From NCBI GenBank assembly GCA_050951545.1, contig JBMNJG010000011.1, positions 64,001 through 128,000 on the forward strand: a DNA stretch of 64,000 nucleotides. Direction: 5' to 3'. The stretch's first letter is position 1. Each line of letters opens with the position of its first letter. The translations under genes were made by a program, and so were the position numbers. The DNA comes from Limnochordia bacterium. Lineage in GTDB: Bacteria > Bacillota > Limnochordia > DTU080. Under the pieces are notes generated by a model. It ran no database searches, had not been told where the DNA came from, and saw only the letters and a list, made by a program, of their open reading frames with translations. Shown here in pieces: positions 5,728-52,141 of the stretch.

Positions 5728-5781
5728 TTTGTTGGGGGTGATCCAAACGGCGTTTTACGACCAAAGTACGACCAATAGAAT

Positions 5782-6050: not shown

Positions 6051-6076
6051 CGCGCTAACCCCCTATAATTGGACAC

Positions 6077-7010
6077 CTAGAGCCGGATAGCGGTTGGTCT
6101 CGCAGTATTGCTCACACATGCTTCATGGTACTCGGCCGGGGGTACATCCCGCAAGGAGCCGTGAAGCCTGCGGTGGTTATAGTAATCCATGAATTCAACG
6201 ACTGTCACGTAGGCCTCAGCGAAGCTGTTGAACTCGTACCGGCTGAAGCATTCATCTTCCAGTATCGAGTGAAAGGCTTCGATGTGGGCGTTTTTGTTCG
6301 GAGTCCTTACTGGTATGCATTCATGCTCCAATCCGAGTCCCTCGCATGCTGCTTGGAAGCGATGGCTCACGAATTGCGGTCCGTTATCCGAGCGGATAAT
6401 CACGGTAGCATCGCCAGTCTCAGTAGCTCGGCGCTGGCAGGCCCCCTGAATGCTTGCAGCGGCTTCCTCGGCCGTGCAACTGAGCCCAATGTGATAGTCG
6501 AGCACCATGCGATCGTACACATCTATCACCGTCTGTACGAAGAAGAAGCGACGTTCTTCGGCAATGTAACCATACTTGATGTCAGTCTCCCACAGCTGGT
6601 TGATACCTGTGATTTCCCTGTTCGTGGCTACCTTGCGTTTCGCAAGGCGAGGCCGCAATCGACGTTGAGTCTGCTTGATTCTGAGCCCGTGCTCTCTCTC
6701 TAACCAGCTCGTCAGCTTGCGATAGCCATAGGGGCAGCCGTCGCCGCTGATGGCAGCCAAGAGAAGCTCCTTTATGCACTCGTCACTAACGATCTCGCCT
6801 TTCGTGGTGAAGGAGAATCCGGGAATTGGTCGCCCACGCGAGCCGCCTTGCTTTCGCTTTTTGCCTCCTTTCGGGTTTTGGAGGCGCCAGTAGTACGTTG
6901 AGCGCGAAACACCCGCGAAGCGTAGAACCCAAGACACTGGGTAGCCTTTTGCGATCCATTTGTTGGCTACCTCGAGACGCTCATCTAAAGATGGGTCCCC
7001 TTTTCTCGAG
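6077..7010 (-). CDS. IS3 transposase OrfB (DDE/rve domain), probably reached by frameshift
   Basis: WETDIKY, RSDNGPQF, NAHIEAFHSILEDE, YNHRRLHGSL motifs; overlaps the orfA end at GAAAAGGGG. Confidence 0.88.
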
Positions 7011-36483: not shown

Positions 36484-36613
36484 TCCTCTTACAGATGGCG
36501 ACAGACTGCAAGGCGCGTGGTGAATTGGGGCCACGCGCCTTTCTGAAAAGGGTCACCTGCGGTCATGCCCACAGTACTAAGCTGATAGGCTTCTCGTTCC
36601 TCCTAGTGTATCC

Positions 36614-38002
36614 TCAAGACTCACCGAAGGCCTTCTTCGGGCCACGCGTCACGGCTTTGGAGCGCCAACGTCCACTGCGGTAGTATGTGAGATGCAGTAG
36701 GAAGCCCGAAAAGGCACTGATGGCGATGGCTGTCCAAACCCCAGAGATGCCGTATCCCTGCTGAACTAGATGGCGCGCCAGAGGCACCCGAACGCCCCAT
36801 AGCGACAGCAGCGATAGCACCATGGTGGCCATGGTATCTCCCGTTCCTCGCAAAACACCACCTAGCGTGAACATCAACGCCAACGGGATGTAGGCGAGGC
36901 TCATATATCGCAGGTAGCGTGCTCCTTCAGCTAGAACCCCAACGTCTTTCGTGAACATCGACAGCAGCAGATTGGGGCTGAAGATCGCCACCAGACTGAC
37001 CAATGCGGTGATGCTGGCCGCTAGCATAAGGGCCCACTTAACGGTTTCTCTTACGCGATCATCTCGATCCGCCCCCAGGTTCTGCCCGACCAAGGCGGAA
37101 GCGGCCGCACCCACACTCATCGCTGGCATGAAGGCGAATTGGTCCAAGCGCGCTGCTGACCCAAACGCGGCCACGACTGTGGCGCCAAACGAGTTGACGA
37201 TGGAGTTGACCACCAAGGCACTCAGTGAGACAAGCACCTGCTGAAGACCAGCCGGGAGCCCAATGCGAAACGTCAGTCTGGTGATACCCCAGTCTGGTCT
37301 GAAGGTACCCGGCTGGTAGGTGACAATGCCTGAGCGCGCGTAGAGGTAGTGTAGAGCGAGAATCGCGGAAATGCCTTGTGCAATCACTGTAGCCAGCGCT
37401 GCACCGCTCACACCCATCGCCGGGATAGGCCCTAAGCCAAAGATGAGTAGTGGGTCAAGAAACACGTTGATCACTGTGGCGTAGATGAGGAAGCGCAGGG
37501 GGGTTCGCGAGTCACCGAGCCCTCGCAAGATGGCTCCAGCGGTGTTGTACAAAAACATGACGATCAGGCCGGATAGGTAGATCCCCAGATAAGAAGAGGC
37601 CTGATCGATGATCTCTGCGGGAGTGTTGATCAGCCGCAGTAAGGGTGTGCGGAAGGCGAATCCCAAGACAGAGACAACTCCGCCCAAGACTGTCAGCATA
37701 AGCAGCGAGTTGTTGACAGTCTTCATCACACGTTCGTGCTGGCCAGCGCCGAAGTACTGGGCGACCAAAATGGTCGAGGCCATGGCAATGCCCATGACTA
37801 GAGCTACCATCGCAAAGATGACTGGAAAACCTACTGAAACAGCAGCTAGGGCGTTTGCTCCTAGAAAGCGGCCCACCCAGATGCTGTCGACCGTGTTATA
37901 GAAAGCCTGCAGTAGGTTCCCTAGAAACATCGGTGCCGAGAAAGCGATGAGATGTCTGGGGATGCTCCCTTCCGTGAAATTCGTGATCTGTTTGCTCTGC
38001 AC
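36614..38002 (-). CDS. MATE family efflux transporter
   Basis: GNLLQAFYNTVDSIWVG, LRGLGDSRTP and NVFLDPLLI motifs; ~12 TM helices; GTG start behind AGGAG. Confidence 0.93.
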   Translation of the reverse strand: MQSKQITNFTEGSIPRHLIAFSAPMFLGNLLQAFYNTVDSIWVGRFLGANALAAVSVGFPVIFAMVALVMGIAMASTILVAQYFGAGQHERVMKTVNNSLLMLTVLGGVVSVLGFAFRTPLLRLINTPAEIIDQASSYLGIYLSGLIVMFLYNTAGAILRGLGDSRTPLRFLIYATVINVFLDPLLIFGLGPIPAMGVSGAALATVIAQGISAILALHYLYARSGIVTYQPGTFRPDWGITRLTFRIGLPAGLQQVLVSLSALVVNSIVNSFGATVVAAFGSAARLDQFAFMPAMSVGAAASALVGQNLGADRDDRVRETVKWALMLAASITALVSLVAIFSPNLLLSMFTKDVGVLAEGARYLRYMSLAYIPLALMFTLGGVLRGTGDTMATMVLSLLSLWGVRVPLARHLVQQGYGISGVWTAIAISAFSGFLLHLTYYRSGRWRSKAVTRGPKKAFGES

Positions 38003-38148
38003 TCCATCGACTCCTTTGACAATGATGTGATGCTGTGCGGGCATGTCGGCGGCGGCAGACACGCGTACTCCCTTGCGTGCGTCTCGCAGTAGTATGCCGT
38101 AGGTTAGCTGCTGAGTCAAGGTAGGGAGGGGCTCGGGGAAGGGCTGAT

Positions 38149-39588
38149 TCAACAAGAAGCGGGCGTCGTAGCGCAGACATGCCTAGCTACGTGGATTCCT
38201 GAAGCGGAGGCCTGGGCTAGGCTGCGTGTGATACCTGCGCCGTCGCCAATGGCGTATAGCCCTGCAATGGCCGTCTCGAGGCTGCGAGTGAGCCGGGGGC
38301 GAGCGCTGTAGAGTTTGGCTTCGACGCCGTAGAAAAGCGTGTGTTCGGAGGCGATGCCGGGGGTCACCTTATTCAGCGCTTGTATCATCTCCAACAGTGC
38401 TTTCATGGTGTTGTAGGGAAGAACGAGTCCCAGATCTCCGGGAACCGCCTCCTTGAGGGTTGGCTCTATGAAGCCTTCCTGGATACGTTTCACGGTCGAA
38501 CGGCGACTGCGCAGGATATCACCACATTTTTGTACGATCACCGATCCGTTGGAGAGATCGTTGGCCCTTCGGCTGATCTCTTTCGCGTATTCAATCGGCT
38601 TGTCGAAGGGTTCCGTAAAGACGTGGGAAACCAGGAGGGCGAAGTTGGTATTGGGGCTTCCCAGACTTGGGTCATGAAAAGCATGTCCATTTGCCGTCAT
38701 GACACCCGAGTGGTTTTCGATGACGACATGACCGCTTGGATTGGAGCAGAAGGTGCGGACCCGTGTGCCCACCGAGGAGTTGAAGATGAACTTCGCCTCG
38801 TAAAGGTACTCGTTGAGCTCGTGCATGATCACATTGGTGGTTTCCACGCGCACCCCAATATCCACTTGGTTGCTGCTCATCGTCAATCCATGCGATTTGA
38901 GCACACTGGACAGCCACTCAGCGCCGTCACGGCCGGGGGCCAGGATGACCTTCTCCGCGAGCAGCTCCTCTCCGTCGGTAAGAATGACACCTTTGATCAC
39001 GTCATTGTGTTCCCGGTTTTCCACGAGGATGTCTTGGACCTGAGTTCTAAAGCGGATCTCGACGCGCTGACTCAGGGTCTCATAGAGGTTTTTCAGGATC
39101 TTGAGGTTCTCCTCGGTTCCCAGATGTCTGACGCGTGCCTTGAGCAGCTTGAGTCCTGCAGAGGCGGCGCGGCGTTCTATGGAGGCTACTTCTGGGGTGT
39201 CAGGGTTGGTAGCGGACGTGGTGGCACCGTGATCCAGGTTGATCCGATCTGCGTACTCGATGAGCTGGAGCACTTTCGATGGGGCCATGTACTCCTGCAG
39301 CCAGCCTCCAAACTGCGTGGTGAGGTTGAACTTACCATCGCTGTAGGCGCCTGCGCCTCCCCAACCCGTGGTAATGGAGCAGGCCGGAACACATCCCGCA
39401 TACTCTTTGCCGTTGACTGCAGGGGGACACTTGCTCGTTTTGCCATCGAGGATCGGGCAACTCCGACTCTCGAGGCGGCGTCCTTTTTCAAGGATCAGTA
39501 CCCTAAGACGTGGATTGAGGAGCGTCAGCTCATAGGCGGCGAAAATGGAAGCTGGTCCAGCTCCGACAATGATGACGTCGTATGACAT
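38149..39588 (-). CDS. FAD-dependent oxidoreductase (COG2509-like)
   Basis: IVGAGPA, GGAGAYSDGK, DIGVRVE, RTFCSNP and GDGAGITRSL motifs. Confidence 0.9.
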   Translation of the reverse strand: MSYDVIIVGAGPASIFAAYELTLLNPRLRVLILEKGRRLESRSCPILDGKTSKCPPAVNGKEYAGCVPACSITTGWGGAGAYSDGKFNLTTQFGGWLQEYMAPSKVLQLIEYADRINLDHGATTSATNPDTPEVASIERRAASAGLKLLKARVRHLGTEENLKILKNLYETLSQRVEIRFRTQVQDILVENREHNDVIKGVILTDGEELLAEKVILAPGRDGAEWLSSVLKSHGLTMSSNQVDIGVRVETTNVIMHELNEYLYEAKFIFNSSVGTRVRTFCSNPSGHVVIENHSGVMTANGHAFHDPSLGSPNTNFALLVSHVFTEPFDKPIEYAKEISRRANDLSNGSVIVQKCGDILRSRRSTVKRIQEGFIEPTLKEAVPGDLGLVLPYNTMKALLEMIQALNKVTPGIASEHTLFYGVEAKLYSARPRLTRSLETAIAGLYAIGDGAGITRSLAQASASGIHVARHVCATTPASC

Positions 39589-39593
39589 GTAAG

Positions 39594-40076
39594 TCACCTT
39601 CTTGGTATAGCGTAGCGGTTTAGTATAGGCACTATCCGCTCAAGACCCACGGCGTCGTCAGAGCAAAAGCGCGCTGGTATCGGACTATCTACATCGAGCA
39701 CACCGATCAGGCTTTCACCGGAGATCCAGGGCATGACAAGCTCGGAGCGCGACGCCACATCACAGGCGATATGCCCGGGAAAGCGATGCACATCTGACAC
39801 CACAATGGTTTGTCGTGTCTGGGCGGCAGTGCCACAGACCCCCCGCCCCAGCGGAATGCGTACACAAGCTGGCTTTCCCTGGAAGGGCCCCAACACGAGC
39901 TCTTCGCCTTGCATCAGGTAGAACCCGACCCAATTGGTCTCAGCCAACTCATGATACAGCAAGGCAGCCGCATTCGCCAGATTGGCTAGCCAGTCGCTTT
40001 CGGAGCCTATCAGAGCCTCGAGATGCGCCGCGAGTGTCTCGTAGAACGCCGCTGTAACTCTCCTACGTTCCGACAT
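39594..40076 (-). CDS. msrC: GAF-domain free methionine-(R)-sulfoxide reductase
   Basis: NWVGFYL..LVLGPFQGKPACVRIPLGRGVCGTA..FPGHIACD..SELVMP..VLDVDSP. Confidence 0.9.
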   Translation of the reverse strand: MSERRRVTAAFYETLAAHLEALIGSESDWLANLANAAALLYHELAETNWVGFYLMQGEELVLGPFQGKPACVRIPLGRGVCGTAAQTRQTIVVSDVHRFPGHIACDVASRSELVMPWISGESLIGVLDVDSPIPARFCSDDAVGLERIVPILNRYAIPRR

Positions 40077-40363
40077 AGATGCTGACCTCCCGGTAAATCG
40101 TGTTACGCCGTGCGGGTATGTCGGCAGCTGCTCCCAGTGGTCACCGTCTGTTACAGAGTCACTACCTGCCGACAATGCGCACCCTCTCTTCATGATCCCT
40201 TCGCCGCATAGGTCTTGTACCCTGGGAGAGAGAAGTCACACTGAGGCTTGACGTTACACCCGTGGTGTTTTCCTACGTGCAGACAGGTATTTCCCGACAT
40301 TGTGCGAAGAGATCTATTATAATCGCATGTTACTCGAAAAACATCTCGCGAGGAGTGGGCATC

Positions 40364-43300
40364 GTGGCTAAGTGGTCCTTTGCTGGATTCCAGCGATGGT
40401 ATGTGCAGACGCTCAACGATGAGGAGGTGAGCGCTGCCCTGGCTGAACTGGACCCTCCACCCAGGGGATTGGGGGAAGCCTCCCCTCAAAAGCGACGGGA
40501 GATGCTTCTCAGGCTCTGGCGCAAGCATCCCCAGGCGAGTGTTACCATAGGCTGCTATCTGGGCTCAGTTTGTGCCGGGCTACGCGAGGCTCTTAGGCCG
40601 TGCACCGTGGACGGTATTCGTTCGCGTCTTGACGATCTTGTCGAGACGCATGGGGTAAGAGACCTAGCCTGCGCACTCTTCATCGACACGTCAGAATACC
40701 ACCGCGAGTTGGGGGCGGAGGTCTTGACTCGGTGGGGCGACATGGCTGTTCGTCCAGCATCGGCAGAGGCCGAAATAGCCACGGCGCAAGAAGAGATGTC
40801 GCCAGTTTTCTCCGCAGACCAGGCGAAAGCCCAGCTCTCGAGGATTGCCTCTTGGCTGCAGGGGGCACCGCCGGGGGCTGTTGCTGAGGAAGCATTCGTG
40901 GCGGCCCTTAGTGCGGTGCAAAGTGCCTGGAAAAGCTACACACAACGTTCAGTTGCCAGGCAGGTGCATATTGAGGCCTTGCGAGGATGCCTGAAACGAC
41001 TCACCAAAGACCTAGCCGCCGAGGTGGCTTACTTTGAGTTGGCAGACGTATTGCCGCTGGAGATAGCGACCTACCTTGCGGGCACGTTGGATCTCGAAGA
41101 GGCGAGTCGGCGGATGCAGACGATCTGCCTGCACTGTGAAGCTGCCAGCGAGTTGCGGCAACAGTTAGGAGTAACCATAGGGCGCGACCAGGCGATCGCC
41201 GCCCGCCTGCGCGAAATCGGGGAGCAGATCCAAACGATTGCTGGAGCCCTGTGCAAAGGCCTGGCCGGCACGCCCTCCAGTACGCACTCAGATATACCCG
41301 AGCCACCTGAGCCACCTGAGCCACCTGAGCCACCTGAGCCACCTGAGCCACCTGAGCCACCTGAGCCACCTGAGCCACCTGAGCCACCTGAGCCACCTGA
41401 GCCACCTGAGCCACCTGAGCCACCTGAGCCACCTGAGCCACCTGAGCCACCTGAGCCACCTGAGCCACCTGAGCCGCCCGAGCCGCCCGAGCCACCCGAG
41501 CCGCCCGAGCCGCCCGAGCCGCCCGAGCCGCCCGAGCCGCCCGAGCCGCCCAGCCCGCGAGCAGAACAGTTCTGGGGAGCTATAGAGCGTTCAGATTTCG
41601 CTCTGGCCTATTGGTTGGCCAGGGAGCACGAAGATGGGGGAGGGGAGGCCGGACAGCTACTGCCGTCTTGGTTCGTGATGGCCTTGGGTATCGGTGTTCA
41701 GGGTGATCTTTCACAGGTTCAGATGCAGGAAAGATGGCGCGACATTGCCTATGCACACCCGGATCCTTTGCTCGACCTTCACGGCTACTGGGGAGAGTCC
41801 GCAGTAGCTCAGCTGGCCACTGCGGCAAGTCTGCGCCCAGCATTGCTGGCTCCCGAAAGTGGCGCTGTTGGGTGGCTACGCGAGGTGCAGGAAGAGCTGA
41901 GTCCTGCGAATGCTTCGGGCGAACTTCTTCACGCGGTGGTGGAGTTCGCCCAGCGAGGCGTGGCTTTCGACCCCACGCGACTGGCGGGCTCCTTGGCGGA
42001 CGAAACGCGCCGCAAGCGATTGGCAGACGTTGCGCGAGAGATGCATGAGTGGCGGGAGCAGACTACACAGGCAAAAACGGCCTATGCCACCGCCACACGA
42101 GTGATGAAACACCTTGCTTCATCTGCAAGTGAGACGGGAGCGGTCGTGGAGGCCGTCTTGGCGGGAGACCCCAACGCGGGGGAGGCTGCGCGGCAGCTTC
42201 TCGCACGGCGTCTTGCCAGCGAACGGCTGATGAAAGACTATGTGAGCGCGGCTACCTCGGTGGGCCGCGGCCCTCAGGGCAAGGCCAAGGAGATCCGTGG
42301 GCAACCCCTTGATCAAATTCTGCGGCGTCTCGAGCATCTGCAGAACATCCTTGAGCGTTGGTTGCGTCTCACACGCGTTGGGCAGGAGAGCAGTGATGAT
42401 TGGCGCACGCGAGAAGCCGTTGCCCTTCGCGAGCGTTTCATGCGAGCCTGGCCGCAAGTCGAGCAAGAACCCATGACCGGGCCGGGTGGTGATGGTGACG
42501 AGGTTGCTTGCGTGATGCGGGCCGTACCCACGATAGTAAGGACTCTTGCGGCGGTAGCTCAGGAGCTCTTTTTTGGTCCCGATGGCGGTACTGTGAGCGA
42601 GCAGGGCTGCTGGCAGGAGGCCCTGAGACGTCCACTCCTGCTGATTAGCCCGCCACCGGCCCACGTGACTGATCCCTGGAGCCCCGAAGCATTTCGGCCG
42701 CAAGTCTCGCTTCTATCTGCAGTGCTCGAGGGTCGGACGCTTCGACAAGCATTTGATTTGCATCTTGACAGCGGATACCCGGAAGTGGCTGAGATGGTGC
42801 TGACTGAGCTCGAACGGGTCATTCCGGAAGAGAGCGAGCTTCTGCATGACCTTGTGGTGGCCGCCACAACTAAGGCAGAGCGGGCCTTGGCCGCCCGGCT
42901 AGAGGAAGTCCATCTGCAAGTGGAACGGGGATTCTTCGACCACAGTATTGGTGTTGAGGATTACTCGCATCTGCAGGGACGCCTACTCTCCGCTGAACAG
43001 GAAGCGAGCAACGGTAGGCGTCATTTTTCGGAGATCATGCAGGAGGTCTGCAGTGTCGAAGGTGAGATCGCCAGCCTACGTCACCGACGGGAACAGTCGC
43101 TGAGAGACTTGCTTACTCAGATTCGGGAGGAGTTGGGGGGTGGGGAAGGCCCCACTCTCGCCGAGGACGAAACCCGTTTGCGCTGTGTGGAGAAAGCTGA
43201 GGAGGCCTTGGTGAGTGGTGACCTGCCCCGAGCAGACGAGTACCTAACCTACGCTGAGATAGGGGGCGCACCGAGTCAGTCGGAGGATCTTGAGGACAGC

Positions 43301-46102
43301 AGCGTGGTAGAGCAGTTCTGCGCTGTGCAGGAGGACATTCAGCAGGCATTGCAGCGCCACGGCGAGAAGCTCGTCAATATGCTCAAGAACCGCAAGCGCG
43401 GTTTGGGGATCGACATGGGTCAGGTGCCGGGGGCCCGGGATTCTGAGATTGACGATGGACTCAGGGCCTACTGGTGGATCAAACGGCAGGATACGCTGAC
43501 AGCGAGCGGCATGATGCGGCGCAACATTACGCAAGTGCTCACATACTTGGGCTTTCATGAACCTAATGTCAGTATGAAGAGGATCGAAGAGCAGGCCGCA
43601 CATTTCGCGGCAACCATGAAGGCTGGTACGCTTTCGCCACTTCCGGAGTGGGGCTCTCTATGTCGGGATCACTACGATGTGGTCTTGGCGCGTGATCGCC
43701 CGAGTGCGGAGATGCTCGCTCAGGCGATCACCAGGTTTGGGCTGAGTGCCTCCAATCCGATTATCCTGTTCTTCGGGCGCCTCACCCAGCTGCAGCGAGA
43801 GGAATGGAGTGCCTACTGTCGGCAGCACAAGATGAGCGCTCTACTCATCGACGAGGTACTTCTCCACTTTTTGGCCTCGCGGCGCCAGACTCGGCTTCCT
43901 GCCGCTATCAGCTGCGGGGTTACTTGGGGCTACGCCAACCCCTATCGCTCCTCTGGGGCCATACCACCCGAGATCTTCAAGGGTCGCCACCATATGGTGG
44001 TCGACATAGCGAAGCCGATGGGGACATCACTTGTGTACGGTGGCCGCCAGTTTGGCAAGTCGGCACTGTTGCGGACAGTACAGCGCACCTACCATTGCCC
44101 TGAGCAGGGCGTTTTCGTCCTTTACGAGGATATCAAGACGTTGGGCGATCCGGAGGGTCATCACCTTGCCCGCGACATCTGGGTGAGACTACGTGATGAC
44201 TTGGCGACGGCTAGGATAGTGCAGCCGACTGCCAGCGAGTCACCGGACGCGTTGGGCAGACGCGTTCTGGATGTGCTCGAGCAAAAGCCGACGATGCGCA
44301 TTCTAGTCCTGCTCGACGAGGCAGACAGCTTCCTTCAGGCAGATGCCAAGGAGAATTTCCCCGAAGTACATGAGCTCAGGCGGATCATCGACGCTAGCCA
44401 AGGGCGGTTCAAAGTGGTCTTTTGTGGCTTGCACAGTGTGCAGCGTTTCTGTGCACGGCCGAACCATCCGTTCGCCCAGCTAGGGAACGAACTGGTGGTG
44501 GGGCCACTGGAGCCGCGCGCCGCCTTGGAACTCATCCAGGGGCCGATGGCGGCCATCGGTTTCGCGCTTGGTGAGGATGTCGCTCTACGCATCCTATGCT
44601 ACACGAACTATCACCCAGCCCTTATCCAGCAGTTCTGCTTGGAGCTGGTTACTCTTGTGCGTCAACGTCTCGATAGGCCGCCCTATGTCGTGACCATGGC
44701 CGATGTAGAAGCTGTGTACCGCAAGGCTGAAGTGCGCGGCTTTATGCGGGAGCGTTTTGAGTGGACGCTCAGACTCGATGAACGATATACGGCTATGGTC
44801 TACGCCATGGTCGCAGCCCAGTTCGAGGACATGGATGGTTATCGCCGGGAGTTCACTACGGGAGAGGCACTGGAAATCGCCAAGTCTCACTGGCCCGCAG
44901 GCTTTGCCTATCGGCAACTGGACGAGGCGAAGTCACTGCTTGATGAGCTGGTGGGTTTGGGAGTGCTTGTTCGTCGGGACAACGGAAAGTACCGGCTTCG
45001 GAATGGCAATGTGGCTCGTCTGCTGGGGGCGCAGGATGAGATCAGGGACAAGCTCGAGCAACTGGCTACAAAACCAGCCCCTGTGGAGTTTGACCCGGAT
45101 CAGACTCGCTTTGTTATCAGCGAAGAGGGCGAAAGGCGCAGCCCCCTCACACAGAAACAGGCTGGCGAGCTGACGCGTCCTCGGTCGGGTGTTGGGTTAG
45201 TCTTCGGCAGTGAGGCACTGCATCGCTCAGGCGTATTGGATGCCTTGGGGGTTGTGATGCGTGTCGCGCGTCGCGATGGGCAGATCATCACTACCGCTAG
45301 CCGGTTGAGTCCTCACGTGTCTAGCCTTCGAGAGGTGGAGGGCCAGCTGCAGTTACAGCGAGCAAAAAAGGCTGGTCGCTATCTGCTATACGCACCGGCC
45401 AACCATCTGGCCCTGACTCAGGAAGGTTTGCATACCAGTGTGGCCGAGATCAATCGAGTGCTGAGCAAGTACAAGAGCCGCCAGCGTTCTGTTCGCTTCA
45501 TCGTCTCATTTGGAGCGGCGGACTTGTATCGCTGGCTCATTGAGGAGTCGGGCGCCTGGGAGGGGATCGAAAACACTGTAGATGCCACGGCGGTCATTGC
45601 CCGCTGGAGTCGGCAGATGGTTGAAAAACTCCTTGAGAGCAAGGAGGTTCCCTGCACCGATCTGATCGTTGACGATGTTATGGCGATCACAGGAGGCTGG
45701 CCCTGGCTCCTCTTTCATTTCCGGCAGGGCGTCGATGCTGAACGAGACAAGGGTCACGCACCCGATCCCCGTCGGGTGGCCCGACAGCTACGCGAGAGGC
45801 TGCAGGATGACTCTGAGTTGCGGGCGGCCTTTGTCGATGCCCTGGAGGTAGATGATGTCCCCTATGGGGCAGCTCTTCTACATCTCATCCAGAGTCTAGA
45901 GCCGATAGAGTGGGATGATATCCCCTACCTCTTAGAGACCAGCGGGGAGCCGACAGTCCAGAACCTGCCTCTCCCAGAGGCGAGGGCCGCGGTGCAGACC
46001 CTGGCGCGCACGGGCCTGTTGGATGAAGGTGAAGATGGGCTACGCGTAGAGCCCGTGGCAGCTGCGGTAGTACTCCAGGAGGCGGTGGCCAGTCGTGCAT
46101 GA
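40364..46102 (+). CDS. Giant STAND-class P-loop NTPase (~1900 aa) with EPP repeat linker and degenerate second STAND module
   Basis: NPY..G...F.GR, Walker A YGGRQFGKS (44036), Walker B LVLLDEAD, TNYHPALIQ, winged-helix-like LDELVGLGVL; C-terminal VFGSEALH..TGGWP..LARTGLL. GTG start behind AGGAG. Confidence 0.85.
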   Translation: MAKWSFAGFQRWYVQTLNDEEVSAALAELDPPPRGLGEASPQKRREMLLRLWRKHPQASVTIGCYLGSVCAGLREALRPCTVDGIRSRLDDLVETHGVRDLACALFIDTSEYHRELGAEVLTRWGDMAVRPASAEAEIATAQEEMSPVFSADQAKAQLSRIASWLQGAPPGAVAEEAFVAALSAVQSAWKSYTQRSVARQVHIEALRGCLKRLTKDLAAEVAYFELADVLPLEIATYLAGTLDLEEASRRMQTICLHCEAASELRQQLGVTIGRDQAIAARLREIGEQIQTIAGALCKGLAGTPSSTHSDIPEPPEPPEPPEPPEPPEPPEPPEPPEPPEPPEPPEPPEPPEPPEPPEPPEPPEPPEPPEPPEPPEPPEPPEPPEPPEPPEPPEPPSPRAEQFWGAIERSDFALAYWLAREHEDGGGEAGQLLPSWFVMALGIGVQGDLSQVQMQERWRDIAYAHPDPLLDLHGYWGESAVAQLATAASLRPALLAPESGAVGWLREVQEELSPANASGELLHAVVEFAQRGVAFDPTRLAGSLADETRRKRLADVAREMHEWREQTTQAKTAYATATRVMKHLASSASETGAVVEAVLAGDPNAGEAARQLLARRLASERLMKDYVSAATSVGRGPQGKAKEIRGQPLDQILRRLEHLQNILERWLRLTRVGQESSDDWRTREAVALRERFMRAWPQVEQEPMTGPGGDGDEVACVMRAVPTIVRTLAAVAQELFFGPDGGTVSEQGCWQEALRRPLLLISPPPAHVTDPWSPEAFRPQVSLLSAVLEGRTLRQAFDLHLDSGYPEVAEMVLTELERVIPEESELLHDLVVAATTKAERALAARLEEVHLQVERGFFDHSIGVEDYSHLQGRLLSAEQEASNGRRHFSEIMQEVCSVEGEIASLRHRREQSLRDLLTQIREELGGGEGPTLAEDETRLRCVEKAEEALVSGDLPRADEYLTYAEIGGAPSQSEDLEDSSVVEQFCAVQEDIQQALQRHGEKLVNMLKNRKRGLGIDMGQVPGARDSEIDDGLRAYWWIKRQDTLTASGMMRRNITQVLTYLGFHEPNVSMKRIEEQAAHFAATMKAGTLSPLPEWGSLCRDHYDVVLARDRPSAEMLAQAITRFGLSASNPIILFFGRLTQLQREEWSAYCRQHKMSALLIDEVLLHFLASRRQTRLPAAISCGVTWGYANPYRSSGAIPPEIFKGRHHMVVDIAKPMGTSLVYGGRQFGKSALLRTVQRTYHCPEQGVFVLYEDIKTLGDPEGHHLARDIWVRLRDDLATARIVQPTASESPDALGRRVLDVLEQKPTMRILVLLDEADSFLQADAKENFPEVHELRRIIDASQGRFKVVFCGLHSVQRFCARPNHPFAQLGNELVVGPLEPRAALELIQGPMAAIGFALGEDVALRILCYTNYHPALIQQFCLELVTLVRQRLDRPPYVVTMADVEAVYRKAEVRGFMRERFEWTLRLDERYTAMVYAMVAAQFEDMDGYRREFTTGEALEIAKSHWPAGFAYRQLDEAKSLLDELVGLGVLVRRDNGKYRLRNGNVARLLGAQDEIRDKLEQLATKPAPVEFDPDQTRFVISEEGERRSPLTQKQAGELTRPRSGVGLVFGSEALHRSGVLDALGVVMRVARRDGQIITTASRLSPHVSSLREVEGQLQLQRAKKAGRYLLYAPANHLALTQEGLHTSVAEINRVLSKYKSRQRSVRFIVSFGAADLYRWLIEESGAWEGIENTVDATAVIARWSRQMVEKLLESKEVPCTDLIVDDVMAITGGWPWLLFHFRQGVDAERDKGHAPDPRRVARQLRERLQDDSELRAAFVDALEVDDVPYGAALLHLIQSLEPIEWDDIPYLLETSGEPTVQNLPLPEARAAVQTLARTGLLDEGEDGLRVEPVAAAVVLQEAVASRA
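41300..41551 (+). repeat. Coding 9-bp VNTR encoding (EPP)28
   Basis: 19 perfect GAGCCACCT units (41300-41470) followed by 9 GAGCCRCCC units (41471-41551). Confidence 0.97.
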
Positions 46103-47330
46103 TCTGCACTTGGCCGCTCTTCGTTTACCAGAGCCTCAGCGGCGTTGCCAGCAACTCGCCGATGAGCTTATCCAGGGACGTAGTGTAGTGTGGGTAATGC
46201 CCCGCGATACCGAAAGTGCAACCATGTTAGGTTCAGTTTTGCAGCGTTGCAGACAGAGTGGACTTCTGCGCTATGAGCAGTTCGATCTCATTTCCGGATG
46301 CGGGGACTCACCAGCCATTCAAGTTGCTGATCGATGGGGGCTCGCGGATAGCATTTCGCCAAGTCGTCTCTACCGCGAGCTACATACCTCACAGGCGCTT
46401 CCCGAGTTGCTCGTGCTCGAGGGTCTGGCCCAGTTGCCCGAGGCGGATGTCGCAGCGTGGGTACGCTTCGTCCGCGCTTGGGTGGACGCTGCTCGTACGG
46501 TTGGCTCGGCGACGACCCCAAAAGCGCTCTTGGTGCCCGTGGACTCGTGGGAGATCGCAGTGCAATTTTCAGCCGACACCTACTTGGCGATCTCGTGGCT
46601 GTGGGGTTGGGTGGGCGTGCCGGAGGTAATGCTCCTGGCTCGCAGTCTGAGTCGGGAGAGGGGCTTGGCGCCGGATGCGTCTCTTTGGGTGCAAAGTGTG
46701 TACACCCACTTAGCTGGTGGTGACATCGAGTGCTTAGCCTGGCTTGTGGATCGAGGTGCGCCGCCCATCCAGGATGACAGAGTCCATGCCCTGCTGGTGG
46801 AGTATGCTGAACATAAGGGGTGGGGGAAGCATCTGCTCAATGGGCAGAGGAGGATTGCCGCCACTTCGAGTCCTTATCAGAGGTTGGCTCCGCCGGAGTC
46901 CTTGCGGCCTCTTTGGCATGTTGGGGCTGTGGACGATAACGATGGGCACCCCAAGTTCCACGCCGCCTTGCTTGCGGCGGCAGGTCGGAGGCGAGACATT
47001 CGCTGCCAAGTGTGGGCTGCGCAGGCGAGTTGCTTGCTTCCCCTGATGGATCGCTGGCGACTTAACGCCTGTGATAAATTGGCCAGTACCTACTCCGATT
47101 GGTCCAGAGCCTGCGCCCAGGACGAGCTAGCGACGGCAGTATCGGGTGGAGCTACTGCAGTGGAGTTTGCTGACATGGACAACTTCCTGGCGAACCCTCG
47201 TCTGCGTCCGCCAGCGGATCGTGAGCTGAAGCGTCGCACGACAAGGTTACGCCACCGGCGCAATCAGCTTGCGCACTGCGTGCCGTTGTCGTGGGAGGAG
47301 TTTCAGGAAGTCTGCACAGACTGCAGATGA
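46095..47330 (+). CDS. Partner protein: degenerate P-loop/STAND-like N-terminus and C-terminal HEPN-like RNxxxH motif
   Basis: 8-bp overlap with the giant ATPase; GRSVVWVMP, LLVLEGL and LAGGD; C-terminal helix LRHRRNQLAHC (47259-47276). Confidence 0.65.
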   Translation: MHDLHLAALRLPEPQRRCQQLADELIQGRSVVWVMPRDTESATMLGSVLQRCRQSGLLRYEQFDLISGCGDSPAIQVADRWGLADSISPSRLYRELHTSQALPELLVLEGLAQLPEADVAAWVRFVRAWVDAARTVGSATTPKALLVPVDSWEIAVQFSADTYLAISWLWGWVGVPEVMLLARSLSRERGLAPDASLWVQSVYTHLAGGDIECLAWLVDRGAPPIQDDRVHALLVEYAEHKGWGKHLLNGQRRIAATSSPYQRLAPPESLRPLWHVGAVDDNDGHPKFHAALLAAAGRRRDIRCQVWAAQASCLLPLMDRWRLNACDKLASTYSDWSRACAQDELATAVSGGATAVEFADMDNFLANPRLRPPADRELKRRTTRLRHRRNQLAHCVPLSWEEFQEVCTDCR

Positions 47331-47737
47331 TCAGATGCCAGTGCCGCTAGAGGTTGCCAGAAGCGTGTCTTTTTCAGGTTGATTGGTCGTCCATCTCGGT
47401 TTACAAACGCGTGCCGGGTGCTGCCCGTAGCGATAGTCGTAGAGTCCTCGCTCCGTACCACATAGTCCATCTTGAGGCGTACAGGAGTCAGGTGCCGGAG
47501 AATAGCTTTCACTTCCACCAGCTGATCGTAGTAGGCAGGGCGCAGGAACTGGCACTCCATGTGGGTCACCATGATCAGCACCCCTTCAGCCTCAAAAGAG
47601 GAGTAGGGGAGGTTGATGTTGCGGAAAAAGGCACTCCTTGCCGCCTCGAACCATATTGGGTAGACGGCGTGGTGAACCACTCCCATCTGGTCAGTCTCGG
47701 CGTAGCGGACACGGACCTGAATGCAGTGTGGGCGCAA
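47303..47737 (-). CDS. Acyl-CoA thioesterase (YbgC/FadM hot-dog fold)
   Basis: RVRYAETDQMGVVHHAVYPIWFEAAR. Confidence 0.93.
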   Translation of the reverse strand: MRPHCIQVRVRYAETDQMGVVHHAVYPIWFEAARSAFFRNINLPYSSFEAEGVLIMVTHMECQFLRPAYYDQLVEVKAILRHLTPVRLKMDYVVRSEDSTTIATGSTRHAFVNRDGRPINLKKTRFWQPLAALASDHLQSVQTS

Positions 47738-47913
47738 GGTATGTCAGCTCCTAGAATGGCGTCGGTCTTTTCCATGCGTGATCGCAGACCAAGAAGTGTT
47801 TGATGTCTACTGCTAGAATACCTTCGCAGTCAAGCTTCAGTCAATCAGTTGCGGCGGGCTGTGTGATAGAATTGAATCTAAGGGCATCAGTCCTTGGAAA
47901 GGGTGAGTGGTAG

Positions 47914-48789
47914 ATGCGCATAGCTTGCCTACTTTGGGAGGGGAACGAGCGACTGGGGATCCTAGACTGTGAGGGTCAGCAAATAGCAGTGAAAGCACTA
48001 TCGCCGCAGGAGTATTGGGCGACGAGTTTCTTGGAGCGTTCGAAGACACTAGCTGGAGCCAGAACTGTTGTGAACTTGTCGGTAACTGAGGCTGAGTTAC
48101 TTCCACCGGTGCCGCGGCCCCCGAAACTGCTATGCGTGGCTGTTAACTACTTGGAGCACATGCGCGAAACAGGTAGGCACGAATCAGTGGGCGATGTGCG
48201 TCCGCAGCTATTCATGAAGCCGCCCACGACCTCGCTTCGCGCTCACAAGGCCACCGTCTATCTGCCGCTCACGACTCAGCACTTCGACTACGAGGCAGAA
48301 CTCGCAGTGGTCATCGGTGACTACCTTTACCAGCCAGCCGATCATGAGGCGGCAATGGAGGCGGTGGCAGGCTACTCGGCGTTCAATGATCTGTCGGAGC
48401 GGAAGCTTAAGGTAGACCCTCGCGAGGACACGCGTGACAACACCCCGTTCTTCGACTGGCTAGCTGGGAAGTGGATCAATGGAAGTGCCCCTATGGGTCC
48501 ATGGCTAGTGACCCCCGATGAGATTCCTGATCCCCAGGATCTCACTCTACAGCTATTTCTCAACGGTGAGCTTATGCAGTCATCTTCGACGGCAGCTATG
48601 ATGTGCTCGGTAGCTGATATTGTCTGGTACGCCTCTCAGATCATGACCTTGGAGCCCGGCGACATCATCGCTACAGGCACTCCGGCGGGCGTGGGCATCT
48701 CCAGGCGGATTGCATTGAAGCCGGGTGACACCACTGACGTTGTGATCGAGAAGATTGGTACCTTGACCACCACGTTTGCGGGCGAGTGA
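47914..48789 (+). CDS. Fumarylacetoacetate hydrolase family protein
   Basis: LCVAVNYLEH, DYEAELAVVIG, NDLSER, MGPWLVT and PGDIIATGTPAGVG motifs. Confidence 0.93.
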   Translation: MRIACLLWEGNERLGILDCEGQQIAVKALSPQEYWATSFLERSKTLAGARTVVNLSVTEAELLPPVPRPPKLLCVAVNYLEHMRETGRHESVGDVRPQLFMKPPTTSLRAHKATVYLPLTTQHFDYEAELAVVIGDYLYQPADHEAAMEAVAGYSAFNDLSERKLKVDPREDTRDNTPFFDWLAGKWINGSAPMGPWLVTPDEIPDPQDLTLQLFLNGELMQSSSTAAMMCSVADIVWYASQIMTLEPGDIIATGTPAGVGISRRIALKPGDTTDVVIEKIGTLTTTFAGE

Positions 48790-48815
48790 TTCGCATGGCG
48801 CAAGGAGGGGTGTCG

Positions 48816-50447
48816 ATGTCTGAGCGCGTATCTGCAGTGGCTACGCAGCCAGTACAGTGGAGCTATATCTCTGGAAAGGCCTACGATGATCCGTTCAGTG
48901 CTGTAGACCTGGATGTCTTGTTCGTCGATGTGGCAGGACATGAATGGCGAGTACCAGCTTTCTGGGCTGGCGACATGACATGGTGCGTGCGCTTTGCGCC
49001 ACCGCACACCGGCACCTTTCAGTTTCGGACTGTCTGCTCGGACGCGACCAATTCAGATCTGCATGATCATCGTGGTCTCTTGGAAGCTGGCCCGTATCGA
49101 GGGGAGAACCCGCTTTTTGTTCATGGCGGCCTACGCGTGAGCGAGAATGCACGTCACTTGCAGCATAGTGATGGTATGCCGTTTTTTTGGCTGGCTGACA
49201 CATGGTGGATGGCTCTGAGCAAGCGCCTGGTCTGGCCCGATGAGTTTCAGCTGTTGGTAGAAGACCGCAAGCGCAAAGGGTTTACTGTCATTCAGCTGGT
49301 CGCTGGGCTCTTTCCCGACATGGCGCCGCTAGACACGCGTTCAGCAAATGAGGCTGGGCTGGCTTGGACGTCGGGGTTCGCTCAGGTGAGGCCAGCCTAC
49401 TTTGACATGGCGGATCTACGCATACAGTTTTTGGTTAGGATGGGCTTGGTACCGTGTATAGTGGGCTGTTGGGGGTATTATTTGCCTTTCATGGGCATGG
49501 AGGCGGTGCGCCTTCACTGGCGCTATCTGGTGGCTCGTTACGCGGCCTATCCGGTGGTCTGGTGTGTGGCAGGCGAGGCTGCCATGCCGTACTATCTATC
49601 CACTGATAAAAAGAGGGATCGGGCTAGTCAGGTAGCTGGCTGGAGTACAATCGCTCGCTATGTACGGCAAATAGACCCTTTTCGGCGTCCGCTGACTGTC
49701 CATCCAACGGATGCGTCACGCAATCAGATTGACGACGCGTCTGTGCTGGACTTCGAGATGTTACAGACAGGTCACGGGGGGCACGAAAGCATCGCTAACA
49801 CTGTGGAGGCCATTGTAGAGGCTGTGGCGCGTCCGCCGAGAATGCCGGTGGTCAGCGCTGAGGTCTGCTATGAGGGCATCTTTGGGGGAAGTCATGAGGA
49901 AGTACAGCGCATCGTTTTCTGGGCGAGTCTGCTCTCCGGTGCGGCAGGGCATACCTACGGCGCCAACGGTCTCTGGCAGTTTAACCGGCGTGAGCTGCCC
50001 TTTGGCCCGTCACCGCATGGGGCTAGCTGGGGCAACACGTCGTGGGATGAAGCCATGGGTCTACCAGGTTCCGTCCACGTCGGAATAGGCAAAGCGATCC
50101 TGGAGCGCTTTGCGTGGTGGCGACTCGAGCCTCATTCTGAGTGGGTGGAGCCTTGTGCAGGGCCGCACAACTACAAGGCAGCCTATGCTGCGGGCATTCC
50201 GGGCGAGGTTCGCCTCTTTTACTTTCCCACACCGATCTGCCCTTGGTCGCGGCCGGTTCTGCTTAAGGCTCTCGAGGCAGATACTACCTATGAAGCCACA
50301 TGGGTGGACCCCAGAACGGGGGCGGATGCTCCTCTCGGCACGGTAACGCCGAACCCCGACGGGCAGTGGCGAGTGCCCTATCCACCCACCCTGGAGGACT
50401 GGGTGCTGGTGCTTCAGTCCACAGCGGGTACCGCCAGGCGTGCTTAG
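48816..50447 (+). CDS. DUF5060/DUF4038 apiosidase-like glycoside hydrolase
   Basis: WCVRFAPP.TG, DGMPFFWLADTWW, WRYLVARYAAYPVVWCVAGE, QTGH, EVCYEG and GHTYGANG motifs. Confidence 0.82.
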   Translation: MSERVSAVATQPVQWSYISGKAYDDPFSAVDLDVLFVDVAGHEWRVPAFWAGDMTWCVRFAPPHTGTFQFRTVCSDATNSDLHDHRGLLEAGPYRGENPLFVHGGLRVSENARHLQHSDGMPFFWLADTWWMALSKRLVWPDEFQLLVEDRKRKGFTVIQLVAGLFPDMAPLDTRSANEAGLAWTSGFAQVRPAYFDMADLRIQFLVRMGLVPCIVGCWGYYLPFMGMEAVRLHWRYLVARYAAYPVVWCVAGEAAMPYYLSTDKKRDRASQVAGWSTIARYVRQIDPFRRPLTVHPTDASRNQIDDASVLDFEMLQTGHGGHESIANTVEAIVEAVARPPRMPVVSAEVCYEGIFGGSHEEVQRIVFWASLLSGAAGHTYGANGLWQFNRRELPFGPSPHGASWGNTSWDEAMGLPGSVHVGIGKAILERFAWWRLEPHSEWVEPCAGPHNYKAAYAAGIPGEVRLFYFPTPICPWSRPVLLKALEADTTYEATWVDPRTGADAPLGTVTPNPDGQWRVPYPPTLEDWVLVLQSTAGTARRA

Positions 50448-51199
50448 GACGGCGGTAGTCCCTTTAGGCGATATATGGAGGCCGCAGTCTTTCCAAGGCA
50501 CCAGCACAGTTGCTCCGCTGACAGGCGGGCAGTGCGCAACTTGGTCAGCTCCGTGGCGGCGTTGTCGGCGTGGTCCGAACCAAACAGCAGCCTGTGGGCA
50601 CCCAGATTCTCAGCGAAATGACGTACTAGGAAGCCGCCAGTCCAGGAGGTCTCAAGGTATACGTTCGGGCAGTAGGTGGCGACTGTCAAGGCTTCGCTCG
50701 CCATGAGCATATGGCCAGCATGAGCCATGACTATGCGGACATCAGGGAATTGTCGAGCCACAGGTAGAATGTTCGCTGGTAGTGCCCAGGGGATGCCGGC
50801 TCCGGTGTGGATCATCACAGGAATACCGAGCTCTTGAGCGAGGCCAAAGACCATTCTCCCAGCGGCAGAGTCTGGGCTCAGGCAATGACCGTGTGGATGA
50901 AGCTTCACTCCCACAAAGCCTAGCGTCGTGGTGCATCTACGTAGCTCAGCACTGTACTCCTTTTCCGGCAGGTGAGGGTTGGGGTTGGCCATACCGCAAA
51001 AGCGGCCTGGAAAGGCGCATGCCAATTCGGCAATGGCATCGTGTTGCTTCTGGACTGTCCTCAGATCGTGACATATGCCAGGCTGCACAATCGTTGTGTC
51101 GATGCCGTTGGTTTCCTGGCTCTGCAGGAGTTCATCCTTGGTGAAATCATCCTCGAAAACAGTGTCCCAACCTAGATGGGCGTGCACGTCAATGATCAT
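50444..51199 (-). CDS. Amidohydrolase_2 family metal-dependent hydrolase
   Basis: IIDVHAH, GVKLHP, IHTG, MAHAG and LFGSD motifs. Confidence 0.9.
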   Translation of the reverse strand: MIIDVHAHLGWDTVFEDDFTKDELLQSQETNGIDTTIVQPGICHDLRTVQKQHDAIAELACAFPGRFCGMANPNPHLPEKEYSAELRRCTTTLGFVGVKLHPHGHCLSPDSAAGRMVFGLAQELGIPVMIHTGAGIPWALPANILPVARQFPDVRIVMAHAGHMLMASEALTVATYCPNVYLETSWTGGFLVRHFAENLGAHRLLFGSDHADNAATELTKLRTARLSAEQLCWCLGKTAASIYRLKGLPPS

Positions 51200-51938
51200 C
51201 TTGGTGATCCCTCGATTCCTTTCTGGCTAGGGTTGGGTCTGGAATCGAGCGCCGCCAGACGTCTAAGGACTCCTGTAATGCGGCTTCAGCAATAGAGACA
51301 TCCCTTTTGCGAATGGCATCTACGAGCATGCGGTGATGGCTGATGGCGATGCGGCCTCTTTCTTGATGGGCATGGCTGTGGCGCAGGGATCGCGAAAAGA
51401 CCACATAGATCTCTGTGATCAACTCTCGGATAAGCGCGTTGCCGGAAGCCGCGGCCATCAGATCGTGACACTCCAGGTCAAGGGCGGCCATCTCCTCGGG
51501 ACCAGCCTGTCGTTGTCCAGCCTCCGCCATGCGATCGATTGCCCTCTCCATCTCGCTAAGGTCTACCGCATCGGCGTTGGCGATGGCCATGCGCAGAATC
51601 AGTGATTCCATTTCATAGCGGAACTCGAACCATTGTTCGACGGACTCTGTCGTGAACAACAGGCGGAAGACCAAGGGATTGACGATGGCCGGCTTGGGCT
51701 CAGAGGCCACAAAGGTACCCTCGCTACGTCTGATCTCAAGGATCCCCATGAACTGAAGCACCTTAATCGCTTCACGGATGGGGGTGCGACTCACTTGCCA
51801 GATCTCACACAGTTCATTTTCCGTAGGTAGCTTATCTCCTGGACGGAGTTCTCCATCCATAAGAGCGTGCCAGATGCGCTCAATTACCTGACGAGTTACC
51901 GACGATCGGGCTAGAGGCGTTCCGAGGGCCAAGATCAA
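51189..51938 (-). CDS. FadR/GntR family transcriptional regulator
   Basis: LRPGDKLPTENEL..VSRTPIREAIKVL..GTFV followed by an FCD domain. Confidence 0.92.
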   Translation of the reverse strand: MILALGTPLARSSVTRQVIERIWHALMDGELRPGDKLPTENELCEIWQVSRTPIREAIKVLQFMGILEIRRSEGTFVASEPKPAIVNPLVFRLLFTTESVEQWFEFRYEMESLILRMAIANADAVDLSEMERAIDRMAEAGQRQAGPEEMAALDLECHDLMAAASGNALIRELITEIYVVFSRSLRHSHAHQERGRIAISHHRMLVDAIRKRDVSIAEAALQESLDVWRRSIPDPTLARKESRDHQDDH

Positions 51939-51984
51939 CCATCCCTTCACATCCTCAGGGCATCGTGCACGTGCTATACCCCTA

Positions 51985-52141
51985 GGTAATATGTAATACG
52001 ATATGCGGGATGTTTTCCCTTTGTCGACCCAGAAGCTCTGCTGTTGTTTCGGGGGGCGACTCATTTCCATCACATGAAGGCAGGAAATTGGTGCGGGGGA
52101 ATGTAATAACTGCATAGAAAGGTATTATGTACTACGTAATG
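51985..52141. promoter_or_regulatory. Pair of candidate GntR/FadR operators in the divergent promoter region
   Basis: GGTAATATGTAATACGATATG (51985) and GGTATTATGTACTACGTAATG (52121); the second contains the palindrome ATTAnGTAnTACnTAAT. Confidence 0.6.

Follow-up and report, generated by a model that had tools for sequence, protein, structure and literature searches.

The analyzed stretch of DNA (the window) comprises 64,000 nucleotides (nt) of contig JBMNJG010000011.1 (assembly GCA_050951545.1) of a Limnochordia bacterium and contains two overlapping genes on the forward strand, referred to here as the large gene and the small gene. The two genes are a conserved, mobile and uncatalogued two-gene unit, the function of which we infer. 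The unit varies a design that has been predicted in an earlier publication (nSTAND2; Kaur et al. 2021, PMC8195603). The large gene encodes a giant protein with one live P-loop nucleoside triphosphatase (NTPase) module and one dead AAA-like module, and the small gene encodes a protein in which another dead module precedes a predicted HEPN ribonuclease (RNase) domain. The strict linkage of the genes, the conservation of their motifs, their accessory and mobile status, some defence-type neighbours and the nSTAND2 precedent make it probable, with appreciable room for other explanations, that the pair is an NTPase-gated HEPN RNase conflict system, most likely an anti-phage one acting through abortive infection.

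Gene Organization and Linkage

The large gene occupies positions 40364..46102 (plus strand; 1912 amino acids (aa) from GTG 40364) within an open reading frame (ORF) that is open from 40262 (40262..46102, 1946 codons). Residue numbers of the large protein are given throughout for this 1946-codon ORF. The small gene (46095..47330, plus strand, 411 codons) shares 8 nt with the large gene (GTGCATGA), and the sequence AGGAGG sits 12 nt before its start. The start/stop overlap together with AGGAGG is an arrangement typical of translational coupling and fits such coupling of the two genes.

In all seven genomes with a full-length homologue of the small protein (G030, G041, G008, G062, G350, G334 and G250), the large gene was located directly upstream on the same strand. 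The other genome matches were partial or weak (G010, residues 287–408; G112, on a 1.6-kb contig; G123 and G080, partial; G044, E-value 0.01). Among 80 metagenome loci found with the large-protein profile, the next same-strand ORF matched the small-protein profile in 74. The six misses were three loci at a contig edge (L031, L074 and L096), two loci with another partner (L072 and L073) and one locus with housekeeping genes next to the large gene (L076). Nine metagenome loci were judged by eye to be near-duplicates (L025, L029, L042, L045, L078, L081, L086, L087 and L100). Thus, the large and small genes form one unit. An original prediction made from the letters of the window had described a gene of about 1900 aa overlapping a 411-aa gene by 8 bp and had expected the two to co-occur; both points were confirmed.

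Homologues of the large protein (about 1900–2050 aa) numbered at least 390, and those of the small protein amounted to at least 1249 cluster representatives at an E-value of no more than 1e-3, nearly all of 400–460 aa. Judging by these hundreds of homologues of both proteins with equal length and layout, the pair is not a chance arrangement of ORFs. A word-index homologue search with the small protein or its alignment returned the query itself, or the query and one other sequence, the index being too insensitive for this family.

No third gene was conserved in the 80 loci; the biggest cluster of neighbours comprised four of them. Longer gene rows were observed in individual copies. In the locus L009 (G030, Limnochorda pilosa by its protein record; 4624-6799, minus strand), ORFs of 160 aa and 563 aa trail the small gene in the same orientation, each only a few bases away from its predecessor; neither had a Pfam match, and both may be extra components of that copy. 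In four metagenome loci (L047:11285-14254, L052:10058-13768, L058:8004-11369 and L049:7408-8670), a homologous large gene, 990–1237 aa where complete, follows the small gene and in two of them overlaps the stop-to-stop ORF of the small gene by 34 nt. This trailing gene could be a third component in a sub-branch of the family.

NTPase Modules of the Large Protein

Residues 1001–1946 of the large protein were modeled using AlphaFold2 (AF2) with 49 sequences, namely the query fragment, 46 of the 120 homologues listed and two sequences from genomes (predicted local distance difference test score (pLDDT) 87.1). The model contains, in this order, helices, an alpha/beta domain, a module composed of a nucleotide-binding domain (NBD), a lid and a winged helix, and a second AAA-like module.

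The first module (43937..45031, plus strand, residues 1226–1590) was recognized as a live P-loop NTPase from its Pfam AAA_22 match, the AF2 model and fold matches. Its Walker A motif GGRQFGKS is located at 44039-44062 (residues 1260–1267) and the DE of its Walker B motif (LVLLDE) at 44315-44320 (residues 1352–1353), both on the plus strand. Both motifs were invariant in the 49 aligned sequences (G260–K266 and D352–E353 in the numbering of the alignment of residues 1001–1946), as was an arginine, R1395, after strand 4 of the module. AAA_22 was the sole Pfam family found in the large protein (residues 1256–1394, E-value 1.1e-7, 32.6 bits against a cut-off of 27), with AAA_16 below the threshold, and four large homologues passed the cut-off of Pfam nSTAND1 (PF20703; 28.8–35.7 against 27.1 bits).

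In the VIA structure comparison, the best matches of the live module were 2qen (PABY2304; Z 20.4, root-mean-square deviation (rmsd) 4.3 Å, 322 of 350 residues aligned) and 2fna (SSO1545; Z 19.2). They were followed by a wheat NLR (Z 17.1), ORC2 (Z 16.2) and Cdc6/Orc1 (about 15–16) and, further down, by MuB (Z 15.4), TnsC (14.9), CED-4 (14.4) and Avs3 (13.0). The wide structure search of the 946-residue model covered mainly model residues 220–604. By its Walker motifs and its NBD–lid–winged-helix arrangement, the live module is in the broad sense assignable to the STAND/ORC-Cdc6-clade AAA+ NTPases. The labels "STAND" and "NLR-like" used in the original prediction therefore hold broadly, with NLRs being among the fold matches, but not in the narrow sense: the Pfam family is AAA_22, archaeal ATPases match best, no repeat sensor was seen and the domains are arranged in an order different from that of NLRs.

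The second AAA-like module with a winged helix (45074..46099, plus strand, about residues 1605–1946) is seen in the AF2 model and lacks the Walker motifs; GLVFGSEALHRSG replaces the P-loop, and neither GK[ST] nor DE is present. Foldseek matches of the model included the tandem-AAA proteins p97 and dynein. Searches of PDB sequences with the single proteins and with profiles of both proteins gave low-complexity or chance matches alone, and no relative of either protein with a solved structure was found by them.

Small Protein and Its C-Terminal Domain

The small-protein alignment comprised 70 sequences (the query, three sequences from genomes and 66 of the 150 homologues listed) with 20–31% identity to the query, and the AF2 model built on it reached a pLDDT of 92.3. 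Residues 1–298 (46095..46988, plus strand) form a degenerate NBD–lid–winged-helix module with no GK[ST] and no DE. The matches of this module in the VIA comparison were 2qen (Z 10.7, 253 residues aligned, rmsd 6.2), a TIR-NLR (Z 10.4) and ORC/Cdc6 (about 9.7), while Foldseek pointed to Apaf-1, ORC2 and the clamp loader. Alignment of the small-protein profile with the large-protein profile in hhalign gave a probability of 0.2, so the sequence gives no sign that the dead modules of the two proteins are duplicates of each other.

The module is followed by a helical C-terminal domain (46989..47327, plus strand, residues 299–411), which was read as HEPN and which contains the motif RNQLAH (Rx4H) at 47259-47276 (plus strand, residues 389–394). 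R389 and H394 were invariant in 70/70 sequences, and N390 and A393 were conserved in at least 90%. In the metagenomes, Rx4H was present within the last 90 residues of all 64 complete partners, as RNxxAH in 49 and mostly as RNxxSH or RDxxAH in the rest. The Pfam family HEPN_Swt1 (PF18731) was matched by 11 of the 70 family members at an E-value of no more than 0.01 (best 2.9e-6), and in single scans at an E-value of no more than 1 it was matched by five of ten homologues at profile positions 53–115, over the motif helix. The Rx4H motif, the helical structure and these family-level matches allow us to predict that the C-terminus of the small protein is a HEPN RNase domain. As judged from the alignments, the putative catalytic motifs of both proteins (Walker A, Walker B and Rx4H) are under purifying selection. 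HEPN RNases act as dimers, according to the available text of Anantharaman 2013 (PMC3710099).

Three further claims of the original prediction were borne out by these data: a second, decayed STAND-like module in the large protein, a 411-aa partner with a decayed NTPase-like N-terminus and a terminal RNQLAH, and conservation of the Rx4H motif.

Distribution and Accessory Status

A comparison of positions 36000-52000 of the window with the two same-genus genomes L104 (G002) and L105 (G001) using blastn revealed that homology ends at 40026 and 40046 and resumes at 47349 and 47339, respectively, with 206 and 169 bp between the homology blocks in these relatives. Since synteny in both genomes runs straight from a GAF-domain gene to a thioesterase gene, the segment of about 7.3 kb (40047..47338), which contains exactly the two genes of the pair, is an indel. 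No direct or inverted repeats, insertion scars or integrase were found in its flanks.

The small protein was found in six of 61 relatives and in none of five other genomes of the same taxonomic family, and it is rare in the phylum (nine of 401 sampled genomes). By their source names, the large-protein homologues belong to several phyla and come from Calderihabitans, Limnochorda, Heliobacterium, Chloroflexi, NC10, Deltaproteobacteria, Entotheonellaceae, Desulfamplus and Blastocatellia, where they are annotated only as hypothetical, ATP-binding or AAA family ATPase/AAA domain proteins. Relatives of the alpha/beta and NTPase core were found on 25 plasmid records and ten IMG/VR contigs. Near-identical DNA was present in at least 13 sequencing runs in addition to two samples that may be the source; these runs belong to studies of bioreactors, digesters, landfill and sludge. 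Flanking genes differ between the loci. Thus, the gene pair is accessory and patchily distributed.

N-Terminal Part of the Large Protein

The large protein begins with a head domain (40364..40861, plus strand) that has no Pfam match and varies across the family: among 59 complete N-termini, the family profile begins at position 65 or earlier in 37 and at position 85 or later in 22. Further along lies a linker (41294..41551, plus strand, residues 345–430) consisting of (EPP)28, which agrees with the EPP linker of the original prediction. The linker is encoded by a 9-nt tandem array (TRF: 41296-41547, period 9, 28 copies, 97% matches). The homologues carry non-repetitive linkers rich in P, E and S at this position. 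The presence of 28 near-identical 9-nt units suggests that the array expanded recently and that its length possibly varies from strain to strain. The repeat prevented read mapping across 41296-41547.

The linker is followed by a region of about 650 aa (41552..43507, plus strand) that is conserved in the family from an AYWLA motif onward. This region is called helical, with coiled coils, from sequence conservation, and its modeled part (residue 1001 onward) is helical; no Pfam or PDB sequence match was found for it. The alpha/beta domain (43508..43927, plus strand, about residues 1083–1222) is defined by AF2 secondary structure and by invariant PxFGS and D(E) positions (F98, P126, G131, S132 and D197 in the numbering of the alignment of residues 1001–1946). 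Its elements are arranged as alpha-beta-beta-beta-alpha-beta, with the D(E) at a strand end and without a conserved lysine, an order that we take to be reminiscent of restriction-endonuclease-like folds. No family or fold match was found for this domain in an ESM Atlas look-up or in the wide structure search, which barely covered it, and for the N-terminal part the ESM Atlas look-up gave nothing usable.

The N-termini of the homologues align from GTG 40364, with the common motif F-x-(R/K)-W-Y-V-(E/Q)-T after the start. A promoter-like site (CCGACA-18-TATAAT, 40294..40323, plus strand, 10 of 12 consensus matches) and then GAGGAG as ribosome-binding site precede this GTG inside the longer ORF, and the public record of the large protein also starts at 40364. 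On the basis of these three observations, GTG 40364 is likely the true start of the large gene. Two promoter-like sites were found against 2.0 expected in shuffled sequences, so that the site is a consensus match alone, and terminator and promoter scans of the locus were likewise at the shuffle level.

Sister Clade and Variant Architectures

Three pairs form a sister clade, two from metagenomes (L072:5639-16117 and L073:5603-16181) and one from plasmid pBOCT2 of Brasilonema octagenarum (L117, CP030123.1:4822-15081). The large proteins of L072 and L073 (2367 and 2395 aa, 65% identical to each other) contain a complete sigma-70 (regions 1.2, 2, 3 and 4) near the N-terminus, and their partner is a PLD-nuclease/SNF2-helicase of 1092–1115 aa in place of the HEPN protein. 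The proteins of the Brasilonema pair are 63% and 80% identical to those of L072, and the large one aligns across the sigma-70 region of L072 (by alignment, with no Pfam scan of its own). In the distant variants L106-L111 (viral by IMG/VR listing), the large protein (1507–1926 aa) stops after the winged helix and has no second dead module, and the partner (332–364 aa, with RNxLxH) contains Rx4H in six of six cases. Judging by the sister clade, both the head and the effector can be exchanged while the core stays constant, a pattern shared with immune receptors.

The core was also observed in other giant proteins. A 3256-aa Azospirillum protein annotated as "RNaseH domain-containing protein" (L116, plasmid NZ_CP054617.1:1702-11472) contains the alpha/beta and NTPase core, with 31% identity over query residues 127–710, and its gene neighbours are two further ATPase genes and a DUF6035 gene. 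Plasmids of Bradyrhizobium and Microvirga gave similar matches with the same annotation. These proteins indicate that the core is reused in other giant architectures.

Genomic Context and Expression Signals

The segment is flanked in the window on one side by the GAF-domain gene, an FAD oxidoreductase gene and a MatE transporter gene, and on the other side by a 4HBT thioesterase gene, an FAA hydrolase gene and an apiosidase-like gene; the thioesterase flank named in the original prediction is therefore present. The GC content of the gene pair (0.58–0.64) is slightly higher than that of the flanks (about 0.56). The MatE transporter gene (36614-38155, minus strand) is itself a second indel (window positions 36450-38185): in both same-genus genomes, homology breaks off at about 36449 and picks up at about 38170-38186, and only about 100 bp lie in between.

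Across the loci, 94 immediate neighbours were scanned, one upstream and one downstream per locus with nine duplicates dropped. Among the 25 of 71 families listed, there were nine DEAD/Helicase_C/ResIII helicases as well as seven SNF2, four PLD and four MZB matches (some of which fall on one and the same protein), three DNA methylases, one GmrSD, one SMC_N/AAA_15 protein and one IstB. These counts hint at defence neighbourhoods in a minority of the loci.

Four RNA libraries, each from a different study, contain contigs of 150–465 nt that map to both genes, mostly with an identity of 99% or more, and one of these contigs crosses the gene junction (46058-46229). This is a weak sign of expression of the gene pair; parts of the genes without such cover carry no meaning.

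Comparison with Known Systems

In PADLOC 2.0.0 (2023), no family matched either protein at an E-value of no more than 1, and NCBIfam had no match for either; the original prediction had named the lack of a PADLOC hit as support for novelty. A PADLOC scan of the 70 small homologues gave one marginal match (REase_II, E-value 0.0081). In full-text literature searches, including the available text of PMC3710099, PMC13581612, 10.1101/2024.01.29.577857 and PMC13092281, no validated system built in this way was found, the supplementary family lists lying outside the comparison.

The closest design is nSTAND2, a predicted counter-invader system consisting of a mobile two-gene operon, both products of which contain basal STAND modules (Kaur et al. 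2021, eLife; PMC8195603). One of the two NTPases is active. In the other, the NTP-binding motifs are eroded and an effector is attached, either GT4 or, often, a HEPN RNase; the products are predicted to assemble into a toroidal hetero-multimer. The nSTAND2 NTPase is described there as basal and near transposase-type ATPases, with a conserved arginine finger in both proteins. The gene pair studied here is likewise a two-gene operon with an active and an eroded NTPase, the eroded one being fused to HEPN (the HEPN form only); in addition, Pfam recognizes AAA_22 and TniB and the fold is close to MuB/TnsC. It differs in that its active protein reaches the giant size of 1900 aa and includes a second module, which is dead, that no conserved arginine finger was seen in the dead modules and that no GT4-sized partner occurs among the 150 best small homologues (all no longer than 460 aa). 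Furthermore, Pfam nSTAND2 (PF20702) had no match in the whole genome at an E-value of no more than 10 and none in scans of five large and 70 small homologues. The accession numbers PF20702 and PF20703 are swapped in PMC13449251 (2026), in the part of that text available; the names used here follow the Pfam library used. By its predicted layout, the gene pair follows the nSTAND2 design but differs in family by Pfam model. Consequently, the claim of an undescribed architecture in the original prediction was too strong.

Avs and bNACHT proteins share with the live module a P-loop NBD–helical–winged-helix core (Avs3, 8dgc, Z 13.0; Avs4, 8dgf, Z 8.0), presumed ligand-triggered oligomerisation and nuclease-type effectors. 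However, each of them is one chain that starts with the effector and ends with a TPR/repeat sensor, whereas in the pair the effector has a gene of its own, the NTPase lies in the C-terminal third, no repeat sensor was seen and no PADLOC Avs/NLR model was matched. PABY2304 and SSO1545 and, with them, Cdc6/Orc1 are the best whole-length fold matches of the live module, and 2qen is also the best match of the dead module of the small protein, but PABY2304 and SSO1545 are stand-alone proteins of about 350 aa without HEPN partners, their identity is 10–16% and ATPase_2 (PF01637) is weak in the homologues. Clamp loader delta/delta' and ORC also combine live and several dead AAA-like modules, and the dead module of the small protein matched some of their subunits in fold; this likeness is one of fold and logic, the assembly here being a putative one. 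The Swt1-like HEPN family (PF18731) shares the RNxxAH-type Rx4H ending a helical domain and is matched by the 11 members mentioned above, but most family matches lie below the gathering score. The bacterial architectures in PMC3710099 (HEPN N-terminal to STAND-TPR, and the HEPN-AAA+ protein Ava_2192) differ from the gene pair.

CoCoNuT, a McrBC-type GTPase with HEPN, was considered from its available descriptions and rejected in view of the AAA_22/ORC-like NTPase found here and the lack of a McrC-like gene.

Proposed Mechanism and Alternative Explanations

ORC/Cdc6-clade and STAND NTPases switch or oligomerise upon nucleotide exchange, and ORC and clamp loaders employ inactive subunits as structural members. 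We propose that the large protein would serve as an ATP-driven switch and scaffold. A trigger would be received by its N-terminal two-thirds, which consist of the variable head, the flexible linker, the long helical region and the alpha/beta domain. In response, the one live NTPase module would power either oligomerisation or a conformational change. Presumably produced in a fixed ratio through translational coupling, the small protein would dock via its dead AAA-like module, as inactive subunits do in ORC and clamp-loader assemblies. The assembly would join two HEPN domains into a composite Rx4H RNase site, and cleavage of RNA would arrest the infected cell. Binding between the two proteins, RNase activity, the trigger and defence itself are inferred, as are the sensing and the activation by way of inactive modules put forward in the original prediction. 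A complex prediction for residues 1525–1946 of the large protein with the whole small protein had a score of 0.00 and was uninformative either way.

Several observations weigh against this proposal. The small protein of the window has no Pfam match of any kind, including HEPN, at an E-value of no more than 1; the five HEPN_Swt1 matches in single scans scored 13–17 bits, below the cut-off of 27.5, and the fold matches of the small protein span residues 1–297, the AAA-like module, so the HEPN call was made from the motif, the helices and the family-level matches and not from a fold comparison. No arginine was found among the columns conserved at 90% or more in the dead module of the small protein, which weakens ring assembly, and no conserved arginine finger was seen in either dead module by the same measure; a classical ring with trans-acting fingers is therefore unsupported at those interfaces. 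The window flanks are housekeeping genes, none of them defence-related, and there is no defence island. Across the family, defence-type domains occur in at most about 14 of the 94 neighbours, a count made without a background control, and most neighbours contain none. The core had no match in 50,697 phage GenBank records. The RNA-library contigs could derive from DNA carry-over and show neither strand nor level, and no experiment on any family member was found in the literature.

The small protein could alternatively be a nucleic-acid receptor, in which the dead module, and perhaps the HEPN domain, would bind invader RNA or DNA and report it, while the large protein or a further gene would execute the response. 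Kaur et al. 2021 propose inactive STAND modules as nucleic-acid receptors, in the part of the paper available (PMC8195603), and an extra PLD-SNF2 or DEAD/MZB helicase stands beside the pair in some loci. At L063, an SF2-helicase-like gene comes after the pair; it falls into one cluster with the PLD-SNF2 partner of L072 and L073 but shares just 22% identity with it over 573 aa. However, the 80 loci share no third gene that could act as the executor, and the invariant arginine and histidine of Rx4H point to catalysis and not to binding alone. We regard a receptor role as quite unlikely.

A toxin-antitoxin-like or stress module, in which the large ATPase would restrain a HEPN RNase toxin for the sake of addiction or persistence and not of phage sensing, would agree with two overlapping genes that are mobile and have no integrase, and HEPN toxins are common in toxin-antitoxin pairs according to the available text of PMC3710099 and PMC13000451. 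But a 1900-aa multidomain ATPase with conserved Walker motifs far exceeds the needs of an antitoxin, and both the varying heads at the N-terminus and the exchange of the effector in the sister clade resemble sensor-effector immune systems, which makes this explanation similarly improbable.

New defence systems appear constantly, and the pair might belong to one that is already named or validated and is absent from the models of PADLOC 2.0.0, Pfam and NCBIfam. The empty PADLOC result for both proteins, the single marginal match among 70 small homologues and the absence of PF20702 from the genome speak against this, as do the labels of the homologues, which go no further in any source than hypothetical, ATP-binding or AAA family ATPase/AAA domain. 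The full-text literature, in the parts available, likewise gave no matching two-gene system except nSTAND2, and we consider this case clearly improbable. The housekeeping flanks in the window and the ORC/Cdc6-like fold might suggest a housekeeping complex that has no part in conflict and either processes RNA or is associated with the chromosome. This is hardly credible, since the pair is missing at the syntenic site in the two same-genus genomes, is absent from 392 of the 401 sampled phylum genomes and has a varying context.

The NTPase-gated RNase conflict system thus remains the preferred explanation, and the exchangeable head and effector are the basis for a bolder form of it. Integrated decoys are known from plant NLRs. 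By analogy, the N-terminal head might be an exchangeable bait, either a host component that phages attack or a mimic of one, such as sigma-70 in the sister clade. Engagement of the bait might cause the one live and two dead modules of each pair to form an ORC- or clamp-loader-like hetero-oligomer, and this assembly might activate the partner, which would be the HEPN RNase here and the PLD-SNF2 nuclease-helicase in the sigma-70 clade. Taken jointly, these three suggestions are speculative and rather unlikely.

Conclusions

Should the gene pair be inert or merely a toxin-antitoxin pair, the value of the analysis would be limited to the annotation of a common "hypothetical" giant gene. If the gene pair is a conflict system as proposed, a large phylum-spanning immune-like family has been missed by every defence catalogue scanned here. 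The design is unusual, with one live and two dead AAA-like modules distributed over two coupled genes and a predicted RNase read-out, and it offers a tractable case for how inactive NTPase modules pass on activation. With its sigma-70, the sister clade provides a possible bacterial case of an integrated decoy that can be put to the test. If the head is indeed such a bait, the family would represent a new class of bacterial immune receptor and a new way to sense transcription takeover.

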